Positions 46,100 to 47,555 of a stretch of 64,000 nt of DNA are shown here, piece after piece; the first letter of the stretch is position 1, and every line of letters starts with the position of its first letter. The notes beneath the pieces are model-generated. The model ran no database searches and was not told where the DNA came from. It saw only the letters and a list, made by a program, of their open reading frames with translations. The position numbers were made by a program, and so were the translations under genes. This DNA is from a virus (lineage: Duplodnaviria; Caudoviricetes), in the IMG/VR virus record IMGVR_UViG_3300021167_000382, positions 146,130 to 210,129 of that record. One strand, 5' to 3'.

Positions 46100-47555
46100 T
46101 GGGCGACAAGTTCAAGGGTGTTTCAAGGTACTCTTGGGCATCATGAGTACATGTGTCGCTTTGTTATCTGGATGCTATCAGACAAGTGATGCGGTTTGTT
46201 TTAATAAGAACAACTGTGCACGGGTGTCGTTATTGCTGCTGATGCTATTACCTACGGATGATGTTGACAAAAAGATGAAAATTTTCTCAGGGTGATGGGT
46301 TAGTAATTTGGCACTAGTCGATAGGGATGTCTAGCTGATCGATGGTGCATTTTAGTTGATGGAGGATTGAACGCAGAGATGGTACTTGTAATTCTTGGGC
46401 GATAAGGGCTTGAAAGGTGAGTTTTCCTTTGGGTGATTATTGGACTGCTGGCAAAAACTTAGCCCGGGGTGTTAAGATTTATGCTGAAGAAAATGCATCA
46501 TTGGGCGAGAAAGAATCAAAAGACAAACCTCCGTTTGGGTGGTATCATTGAAACTGACTATTTCAAAGGTTGGTTGTTTAAGTAATCTTGATGCTGATGG
46601 ATAATGGGTGAAATGGCTATATCGACTGCGAAGGTTTCATTGGGGTACTGATGTGCCTGTGATTAGAATTGTGTTGGAAGCTAACCCTTCCTTTGAAGCG
46701 AACGACTTGGGTGTTAACAACCGTCTTGATACTTGTTGATCGAGGGTGCTGAAGCGGTAAGTGTTACTTTTAAGTTACGGGTTTTATACAACAAAGTGAT
46801 TGAAACAATATTCCGGGTGAAGACCTGCGGATTGGTACTACCTCATGCTTGGGTGTTGTCTGTGAGAATGACTAGTTCTCGGTAGGGTGCTATACCTGGG
46901 AATGGAGAAGCCTTATTCTGGGTGAAAGACGTGGGATGTGACGTAAAAATCAATGAAACCCATACTTGGGTGATAAAGATTGTGCTGATAAATGCAGTAA
47001 ATGGGTGTTTGTGTTTCTCAAGGTGATTAGCGCGGTCGGGCGTTAACTACATCTACGGATCAGGCTGAGCTTGGGTGTGCGTGGTAGAATTGGTGAAGAC
47101 TCTTATACGGGTGTCGAGGTTACACTTGGCGCTTAATTCTTCAGGGTGATGAGGGTTGAGCTGACAAATCCCCTCTACGGGCGTCGATGTCGCTGTGTAA
47201 CGATCAGTTACAAATGGGTGTTAAGGTTTGCTGTGGAACAGTGGCATGTGGATGCTATCGTCTCTCTTGAAAACTTTACCCATGGGTGCTATCGGGAAAC
47301 GTGATTCAAACTAATTGCTGGGTGTGAATACTCTATATGGTGGAGTTTAAGATGTGGTTGTGAAAATGGATATTGAAGAGAATGCCTCTGGGTGTCGATG
47401 TCATCTATGACTACATCAATAATTACGGATGAAAAGCTTCTAGTGGCGTAGTAACATCTTGGTCGTTAACCCTAGTTTGAAACTTATGGTGTAAGGGGCG
47501 TTAATATCTCCTGTGAAAAAGACGCTCATCGGTTGATTACAGCAACGGTTGACTA
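46100..47555 (-). repeat. TIGR-like tandem interspaced guide array (~41 units, ~35-nt period)
   Basis: On +, GGGTG-like motif every 33-37 nt (e.g. 46709, 46744, 46779, 46815, 46851, 46885, 46920; 46968 to 47531) with TGR about 18 nt later; intervening segments unique; no ORFs in the track. Confidence 0.85.

Follow-up and report, generated by a model that had tools for sequence, protein, structure and literature searches.

What is the function of a 1.6-kb stretch of phage DNA in which all open reading frames (ORFs) are 53 amino acids or less in length? The stretch lies in a window of 64,000 nucleotides (nt), which is the whole of the DNA that we analysed (positions 146,130 to 210,129 of IMG/VR record IMGVR_UViG_3300021167_000382; coordinates below refer to the window), between a minus-strand gene that we refer to as tas (44662–46050) and a plus-strand gene (47643–48551). 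The genome, a single contig of 210,129 bp, is that of an uncultured phiKZ-like jumbo phage; its nearest phages (31–40% identical in protein) have Ralstonia, Burkholderia, Xanthomonas and Pseudomonas as hosts. We propose, with a probability of about 85%, that the stretch contains a dual-repeat TIGR array (TIGR, tandem interspaced guide RNA) of the nuclease-less TasA class (46101–47557, minus strand). The array has approximately 42 loop motifs and is supported by motif and spacing statistics, homology within the family, co-evolving spacer pairs and the register of insertions and deletions (indels). Systems of this kind are already known; this one is unusual in its repeats, which are reduced to box C, its variable unit length, its enlarged Tas protein and its number of guides (about 42).

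The stretch is dense in one short motif. On the plus strand, 46051–47642 contains 22 exact copies of GGGTG (13.8 per kb, versus 0.74 per kb in the remainder of the window) and no copy of CACCC. Across 1,000 shuffles of this region the maxima were 9 copies of GGGTG and a single pair at a spacing of 33–37 nt; the observed numbers are 22 and 9. Segmentation anchored units at 46101, 46116, 46136 and 46170, then at 37 positions from 46222 to 47496, and finally at 47531. An earlier inspection of the window (hereafter, the original prediction) had described units of 33–37 nt with two exceptions, at 46170 (52 nt) and 46920 (48 nt); we recovered the same range, with a mode of 35 nt, and both exceptions at those coordinates.

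A logo built from 37 units, in which index 0 is the first G, begins with G (37/37), G (37/37), G (28), T (29) and G (35), followed by weaker positions W, T (24/37), R (31/37, p = 1.5 × 10^-5) and A (23/37). The R corresponds to the purine preference that had been noted at position 8. The middle TGR motif of the original prediction, the lack of enrichment of which had been named as refuting, is likewise enriched, with T in 24 of the 37 units at index 18, G in 28 at index 19 (p = 9 × 10^-12) and R in 31 at index 20. The further statement that units share nothing beyond these 5-nt and 3-nt motifs is broadly right, although somewhat more is conserved, both at indices 5–8 and at index −1, where T is found in 21 of the 37 units. 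The two leading Gs and the loop-side TG are 95–100% conserved. The distance from GGGTG to TG measures 18 nt in 24 of the 37 units, whereas that from TG to the next GGGTG ranges from 13 to 20 nt (mostly 16–18) and accounts for nearly all of the variation in unit length.

Repeats this short leave little for generic software to detect, as had been anticipated. Tandem Repeats Finder returned no rows for the array even at a score of 30, Rfam gave no match, and the array DNA of the window had no nucleotide match in the phage collection; the longest words repeated inside the array are 11-mers centred on the motif. We rejected a CRISPR array, which would have near-identical repeats of 23–50 nt and accompanying cas genes, on the basis of the blank Tandem Repeats Finder result and because searches of eight neighbouring proteins against Pfam and PHROGs found no Cas family.

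The gene next to the array, tas (minus strand), encodes a protein of 462 amino acids. In phmmer searches of PDB sequences it matches TasR (9mty, E = 1 × 10^-10) and TasH (21kl, E = 1.7 × 10^-4), and the ten best Foldseek matches in the PDB to its AlphaFold model (predicted local distance difference test score of 82) are all TasR or TasH, with a probability of 1.00. Its matches in family libraries are phrog_4285 and, weakly, Pfam Transposase_20, and it has 362 homologues, many of them from jumbo-phage contigs. The model begins directly with coiled-coil helices (residues 19–48 and 59–89), and the protein aligns from end to end with Nop-only relatives of around 285 amino acids, from which it differs by clade-specific insertions at approximately residues 190–235 and 283–345 and by a C-terminal extension. 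Pfam detected no nuclease family in the protein, neither HNH nor RuvC, with the two insertions not searched separately. Because of the missing nuclease domain, the coiled-coil start and the end-to-end fit with Nop-only relatives, we assign the protein, from its sequence and predicted fold, to the TasA type (coiled coil plus Nop). Two homologues of 763–809 amino acids (P0085 and P0088) carry the intein/LAGLIDADG families PF14528 and PF14890, so that some tas genes of the family are interrupted by inteins.

Processing in dual-repeat TIGR-Tas systems requires Tas, and in SpTasH the catalytic residues are a tyrosine and a histidine of the C-terminal Nop loop (PMC13421893; bioRxiv 10.64898/2026.09.09.750476). 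Tyr399 of the present protein falls opposite Tyr289, the catalytic tyrosine of SpTasH, and does not vary in an alignment of 27 sequences; His408 is kept by at least 90% of the same sequences, but it is located two residues after the position aligned with SpTasH His296. For comparisons among close relatives we used five orthologous loci (L002, L005, L006, L009 and L007), in which tas has a nucleotide identity of 82–95% to that of the window. Relative to L002, codon positions 1, 2 and 3 of tas differ by 4%, 2% and 34%, respectively, a pattern indicating purifying selection on the gene.

On which strand is the array read? We compared around 80 related viral loci, each oriented with tas on the plus strand. 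Where an array is found, it adjoins tas directly, either upstream or downstream, and its repeats end in CCA/YCA on the tas strand. The leading periodic 5-mers of the tas strand are typically of the kinds CACCC, ACCCA, AACCC, AGAAA and AGCGA; GGGTG is not among them in any of these loci. In Ralstonia phage phiRSL1, the strand that carries the tas homologue (26% identity) continues into an array in which AAGWCAYCC alternates with KAGYGNNCC, the spacers being 9 nt in length, and canonical relatives have the order AGAAACCCA, 9 nt, AGCGAG[TC]CA, 9 nt, with repeats that start with AG and end with CCA/YCA, which matches the published arrangement of box D and box C (PMC12045711, section 8). Plus-strand GGGTG is CACCC on the minus strand and TGR is YCA. 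Read in this way, the 3–5 conserved nucleotides are the box C letters at the 3′ ends of both repeats, and the array is upstream of tas and co-directional with it. On the minus strand, CACCC is followed by A in 21 of the 37 units (57%), and the C and A of YCA are present in 35 of 36 units after anchoring (28/37 and 24/37 unanchored). As the arrays of related loci always run with tas, the array RNA is most likely the minus strand.

The original prediction had instead read the plus strand, on which the motifs were first noticed, and started each unit at GGGTG. An array of this orientation would be divergent from tas, with units running from GGGUG and containing a central UGR that resembles the UGA of box C/D RNAs; some units read GGGTGATGA, which recalls the box C consensus RUGAUGA, and the gap of 66 nt between tas and the array could house divergent promoters. 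We consider this orientation unlikely, given that the array of phiRSL1 and the other related arrays are co-directional with tas and have repeats ending in CC(A), and that UGAUGA is not conserved here, indices 5–8 being merely W, T, R and A. Furthermore, the strongly conserved flank is at the far end of the array (47558–47603), where a promoter for the minus strand would be expected, and a match to tRNA-Pro genes, described below, fits the geometry derived from 8-nt 3′ overhangs (PMC12045711, section 7) in the minus-strand reading only. Family orientation thus led us to reject the plus-strand UGAUGA interpretation. A cluster of box C/D small RNAs (RUGAUGA and CUGA boxes, K-turns, L7Ae and fibrillarin) was rejected as well, as neither box is conserved on either strand and Rfam is blank.

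Within a minus-strand array, the next issue is which of the two repeats forms the centre of a guide. Four lines of evidence, from family homology, co-variation of spacers, indel register and length variation, agree on CACCC, the loop repeat, as the guide centre, with YCA at the edge, so that the phase given in the original prediction, with units starting at GGGTG, places the centre of the unit at its boundary. Regarding homology, the array of L074 opens with a 5′-truncated GAGCCA, and truncation of this kind at the array opening has been described for edge repeats (Faure et al., Science 2025; PMC12045711); AGCGAGYCA is therefore the edge and the A-rich AGAAACCCA the loop. The arrays of L020 and L017, with AGWCACCCA and AGTGNNYCA, link these canonical repeats to the CACCC(A) and YCA of the present array. 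In L020 and L074, a sizeable minority of edge repeats end with CG rather than CA (for example, AGCGAGCCG), and the 27 nt that flank them are left unsplit by the search pattern; these may be a sub-class of edge variants or fused units.

The spacers themselves point to the same phase. Among orthologous arrays, the divergence of the two spacers on either side of GGGTG is correlated in all six pairs of arrays (Spearman 0.49–0.62, p ≤ 0.01), whereas that of the two spacers on either side of TGR is not (−0.16 to 0.17). A pooled, alignment-free measure of association gave an odds ratio of 4.8 across GGGTG (p = 1 × 10^-4) and 2.1 across TGR (p = 0.08). These patterns are consistent with the two spacers beside CACCC tending to evolve as one module. 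Eight of the nine resolvable indels of at least approximately one unit break at TG/YCA and remove or add whole spacer–CACCC–spacer modules. Finally, the interval from TG to the next GGGTG holds the length variation, which makes the 5′ part of the edge the variable part of the unit.

The unit that emerges on the minus strand has an edge ending in YCA, spacer A of 9 nt, a loop of the form NNNWCACCC(A), spacer B of 9 nt and the variable 5′ part of the next edge. Motifs of the CACCC type alternate with those of the YCA type, 26 of the 37 units have a spacer A of exactly 9 nt, and the modal unit is the sum of an edge of around 7 nt, 9 nt, a loop of 10 nt and 9 nt, or 35 nt. This geometry bears on whether the array acts as DNA, as a set of protein-binding sites such as iterons, a centromere-like site or an origin, and not through RNA guides. 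Short strand-asymmetric motifs that are regularly spaced over a non-coding stretch of 1.5 kb would suit such a role, and TasA is occasionally associated with ParB (Faure 2025). Two alternating motifs separated by variable 9-nt segments are, however, the exact geometry of TIGR RNAs (tigRNAs); the array adjoins a tas gene and is homologous to arrays of typical members of a family for which tigRNA production has been demonstrated by experiment (PMC12045711), and neither ParB nor a replication initiator was seen among the eight neighbouring proteins searched in Pfam and PHROGs. A role as DNA sites is thus highly improbable, the least credible of the alternatives that we considered.

By analogy with characterized members of the family, a TIGR array of this form would operate as follows. 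Minus-strand transcription would start in the conserved flank (approximately 47560–47600) and proceed towards, and perhaps into, tas. A TasA dimer would recognize the box C that ends each repeat, in the loop as CACCC(A) and at the edge as YCA, and the precursor would be cut in the edge repeat of variable length, by homology with SpTasH through the loop that carries Tyr399 and His408. The products would be tigRNAs of around 33–37 nt, each with two 9-nt spacers around a CACCC loop. The resulting ribonucleoprotein may bind an 18-bp DNA site, the two spacers pairing with opposite strands, and, given that the protein has no nuclease domain, is expected to block the site and not to cut it, as published for TasA. 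The earlier proposal that processing is guided by protein fits the Tas dependence of processing in published systems and the conservation of Tyr399 and His408; that it is so guided rather than by the repeat was overstated, as the box C element of every repeat is conserved.

How far have the repeats degenerated, and does the system still work? By one measure, the repeats of the present array and of L004 contain 15.7 bits of information per unit, those of L003 17.7 and those of phiRSL1 18.7, compared with around 25 in the next clade of jumbo phages (L017 and L020) and 33–41 in canonical relatives (such as L022, L074 and L076). The array could therefore be a decaying, non-functional relic, with repeats that have drifted and long units that are scars of decay: its repeat information is the lowest in the family, box D is gone, the end nearest tas has degenerated and the units are irregular in length. 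Yet L003 and L004, the Tas proteins of which are 63–69% identical to that of the window, have identical minimal motifs; the leading two Gs and loop-side TG are almost invariant, as described above, and tas is intact and under purifying selection. Relative to L002, repeat interiors differ by 22–29% and spacers by 10–16%, the GGGTG core by 6% and the loop-side TG by 0%. Fourfold-degenerate sites of tas differ by 45–53% (0.45–0.53), a rate that predicts that 1–4% of half-spacers would differ from those of relatives by no more than one nucleotide; the observed proportion is 29–69%. Many spacers thus appear to be far better conserved than synonymous sites of tas while repeat interiors drift, and one guide has been retained across the whole clade. 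We regard a relic as very unlikely, and the TIGR system looks functional from these comparisons.

Several points weigh against the identification. Box D (UG in TasR arrays and AG in the Tas family studied here) is kept as AG in L020, L017, L022, L074 and phiRSL1, whereas in the present array and in L003 and L004 only a weak Y/A and K are found at its place; with box D essentially gone, half of a feature that defines TIGR RNAs is present. The alignment-free association of spacers is absent for L005, the most diverged relative, and the pairwise comparisons of arrays share phylogeny. One of the nine indels, the lack of the 48-nt unit in L009, is in the register of the CACCC loop. Mosaic recombination among co-circulating phages can mimic purifying selection on spacers, and recent exchange contributes to their excess conservation. 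A scan for sigma-70-like promoters and terminators found none, with fewer sites than in shuffled sequences; phiKZ-like phages use their own polymerases, so this result says little. More generally, transcription, strand, processing sites, mature length, DNA binding and targets are deduced here from sequence and by analogy.

If the units are guides, the two long ones require explanation. Both are stretched edge junctions. In the 52-nt unit (46170–46221), alignment places the stretch at 46187–46212 (minus strand), approximately 18 nt longer than normal; L002 and L006 share with the present array around 18–19 extra nucleotides, and L005 has a normal unit of 34 nt. In the 48-nt unit (46920–46967) the stretch is at 46937–46958 (minus strand) and consists of two TG/YCA motifs with an orphan segment of approximately 10–13 nt between them. 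This unit is identical at 47 of 48 positions in L002 and wholly absent from L009, whereas in L005 and L006 a single edge at the same site links the spacer of unit 46851 with one that closely resembles the final spacer of the 48-nt unit. The description of the long units as around 1.5 units with an extra spacer is thus fair for the 48-nt unit, with its orphan segment between two edges, and applies only loosely to the 52-nt unit, which has a longer edge junction. The tas-proximal end, which the original prediction had missed, is irregular in the opposite direction: at 46101–46135 (minus strand) three CACCC-type motifs are spaced by intervals of only 15 and 20 nt (from 46101 and 46116), with no edge motif between them, consistent with decay. 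The long units are local accidents at the presumed cutting place of the precursor and not a regular mode of growth.

Changes between related arrays mostly involve whole guides that were gained, lost or replaced, with breakpoints at the edge motif. The suggestion that half-unit gains reveal how spacers are acquired or recombined therefore holds in part: the differences show recombination, not first acquisition, and mostly affect entire guides. The arrays are mosaic. Over the ~500 nt nearest tas, those of the window and L006 do not differ at all, despite a 14% difference in tas, and L007 and L009 alternate between blocks like that of the window and blocks like L002. Turnover is interspersed along the array without strict polarity, replacements being somewhat commoner in the promoter-proximal third. 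At the distance of L003 and L004 almost every guide differs from those of the window, so that identity of arrays among distant relatives, which would have spoken against a guide array, is not seen.

One guide stands out from this turnover. It is located at 47063–47090 (minus strand), with spacer A AUUCUACCA at 47082–47090, the loop at 47072–47081 and spacer B AGCUCAGCC at 47063–47071, and the four close relatives with sequence at this site (L002, L005, L006 and L009) all carry it unchanged; in L003, with a Tas identity of 69%, spacer A has one transition and the terminal letters of spacer B are changed. From the 8-nt 3′ overhangs reported previously (Faure 2025; PMC12045711, section 7), we derived that one strand of the target reads as spacer B and then spacer A in reverse complement, which predicts the target AGCTCAGCC+TGGTAGAAT for this guide. 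Among 301 Pseudomonadota genomes, 72 have a site with two or fewer mismatches, for a total of around 85 matches compared with around 14 for a reversed control. Nearly all of these are AGCTCAGCCTGGTAGAGC (ending with GAGT in two genomes), and in nine of nine loci checked the site corresponds to positions 9–26 of tRNA-Pro genes (CGG or UGG). Against proteobacterial tRNA-Pro genes the guide has 1–2 mismatches, at an edge. The two mismatches are at the first two bases of spacer A, one of them a G–U wobble, and this edge of spacer A is the one reported to be tolerant in published work.

The match to tRNA-Pro genes is a lead and not a proven target, and we would put its chances somewhat below even. 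The exact 18-mer has six scattered matches in 185,579 species genomes, which is below chance, and none is in a tRNA gene; the exact 18-mers of this guide each have one match per arrangement in IMG/VR, which is the background level, and neither is a tRNA. The resemblance was spotted by eye among around 42 guides, and by a rough estimate the likelihood that some tRNA word would match by accident cannot be neglected. For the second most conserved guide (46676), a search of 101 Pseudomonadota gave nine unrelated matches versus three for the control, with no recurrent target, and the more distant Tas arrays yielded no D-arm guide. Searches of all guides against the 210-kb genome of the phage itself, with both spacer pairings, both arrangements, two frames of spacer B and gaps of 0–2, performed no better than mispaired controls, and no tRNA genes were found in the phage genome.

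More speculatively, the guide kept by the clade may direct TasA to positions 9–26 of host tRNA-Pro genes, while arrays evolve by the exchange of whole guides at edges and not by leader-polarized acquisition, and the insertions in Tas permit repeats that retain only box C; as a combined hypothesis this is doubtful. If it were true, the tRNA-Pro guide would be among the first natural TIGR targets to be inferred from sequence. As a candidate for a natural target it is testable, in a nucleus-forming phage in which no guide has a match in its own genome.

The regions that flank the array contain candidate regulatory sequences. In an alignment of the six arrays, the upstream flank (47558–47603, minus strand) is conserved in all close relatives and may be a promoter or leader; a perfect hairpin of 12 bp precedes it in L002 and L006. 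The motif TCTTTT(N3–12)CATCTTA, searched for genome-wide, has only two copies in the 210-kb genome, both on the minus strand, one upstream of the array (47561–47585) and the other upstream of tas, between the last array unit and the start codon (46072–46090), where it is a candidate promoter or regulatory site of tas. The pair could be promoters or regulatory sites related to Tas; the tas-proximal copy is diverged in L002, L009, L007 and L005. Beyond the flank, the plus-strand gene (47643–48551) encodes a glycine-rich protein of 302 amino acids with a weak match to phrog_4474 (unknown function) and lies before the next conserved gene. It is present in the window and in L005 and absent from L002 and apparently from L006, the contig of which ends in the hairpin. 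Without it, the flank runs directly into the 12-bp hairpin and, in L002, onward into a gene for 351 amino acids; the 302-amino-acid ORF looks like an accessory gene that was inserted into, or deleted from, the terminator hairpin. On the minus strand, 39591–41117 encodes a protein of 508 amino acids with DUF4326 and a YspA/SLOG-type domain (PF10686), which is conserved near tas in L003 and L004.

Among known systems, CRISPR arrays are similar in that short guide units adjoin an effector gene and guides differ between related genomes. They differ in that the present array has no long identical direct repeat, no cas genes in sight and two spacers per unit, its turnover is interspersed and not strictly leader-polarized, and finders of CRISPR and tandem repeats are blind to it. 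SpTasH of Salicola phage CGphi29 and TaTasR (9W03, 21KL and 9MTY) share the Nop and coiled-coil fold and are the best PDB matches by both sequence and fold; they are DNA-cutting enzymes with an HNH or RuvC nuclease domain, whereas the Tas protein described here has neither domain. Closer in setting is ORF034 of phiRSL1 and its array (NC_010811, 14218–15642), a jumbo-phage homologue with 26% identity over 85% of the query and an array of around 1.4 kb, the loop-type repeat of which ends in CACCC, the same core as here. In phiRSL1 the array is downstream of tas, both 9-nt repeats keep the AG start and CC end, and the protein has 345 amino acids. In the phiRSL1 record (L001, 13180–15642), ORF034, the Tas homologue, is annotated as a transposase and the array of approximately 36 units that follows it is unannotated.

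The closest counterpart is dual-repeat TIGR-TasA (FpTIGR-TasA of Flavonifractor plautii; Faure et al., Science 2025; PMC12045711), in which a single nuclease-less Nop protein is likewise encoded beside a long array. Shared features are two alternating short repeats, 9-nt spacers, a period of around 36 nt, repeats that end with CCA/YCA (box C) on the tas strand, a conserved loop with Tyr and His that may serve in processing and carriage by phages. The present system departs from this model in its repeat information (around 16 bits per unit versus 33–41 in canonical arrays), its unconserved box D (AG/UG), its units of 33–37 nt plus 48 and 52 nt in place of a uniform 36 nt, its Tas protein of 462 amino acids, with two insertions and a C-terminal extension, versus around 285, and its approximately 42 units, where 5–15 are commonest (Faure; PMC12045711). 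In dual-repeat systems the Nop domain is reported to be conserved and the guides to have a uniform length of 36 nt (bioRxiv 10.64898/2026.09.09.750476), and the clade departs from that rule in its enlarged Tas, box-C-only repeats and 33–37-nt units. TIGRFinder detected an array at only 6,685 of the 20,096 loci with tas, and arrays such as this one may escape finders that are anchored on motifs. The six close arrays also bear on two questions called open in the literature: how arrays change, here mostly by whole guides being swapped, gained or lost at the edge repeat, and whether spacers are under selection, many here being conserved beyond synonymous expectation. With repeats cut to box C, variable units and an enlarged Tas, the clade may mark the minimal RNA signal needed by Tas.

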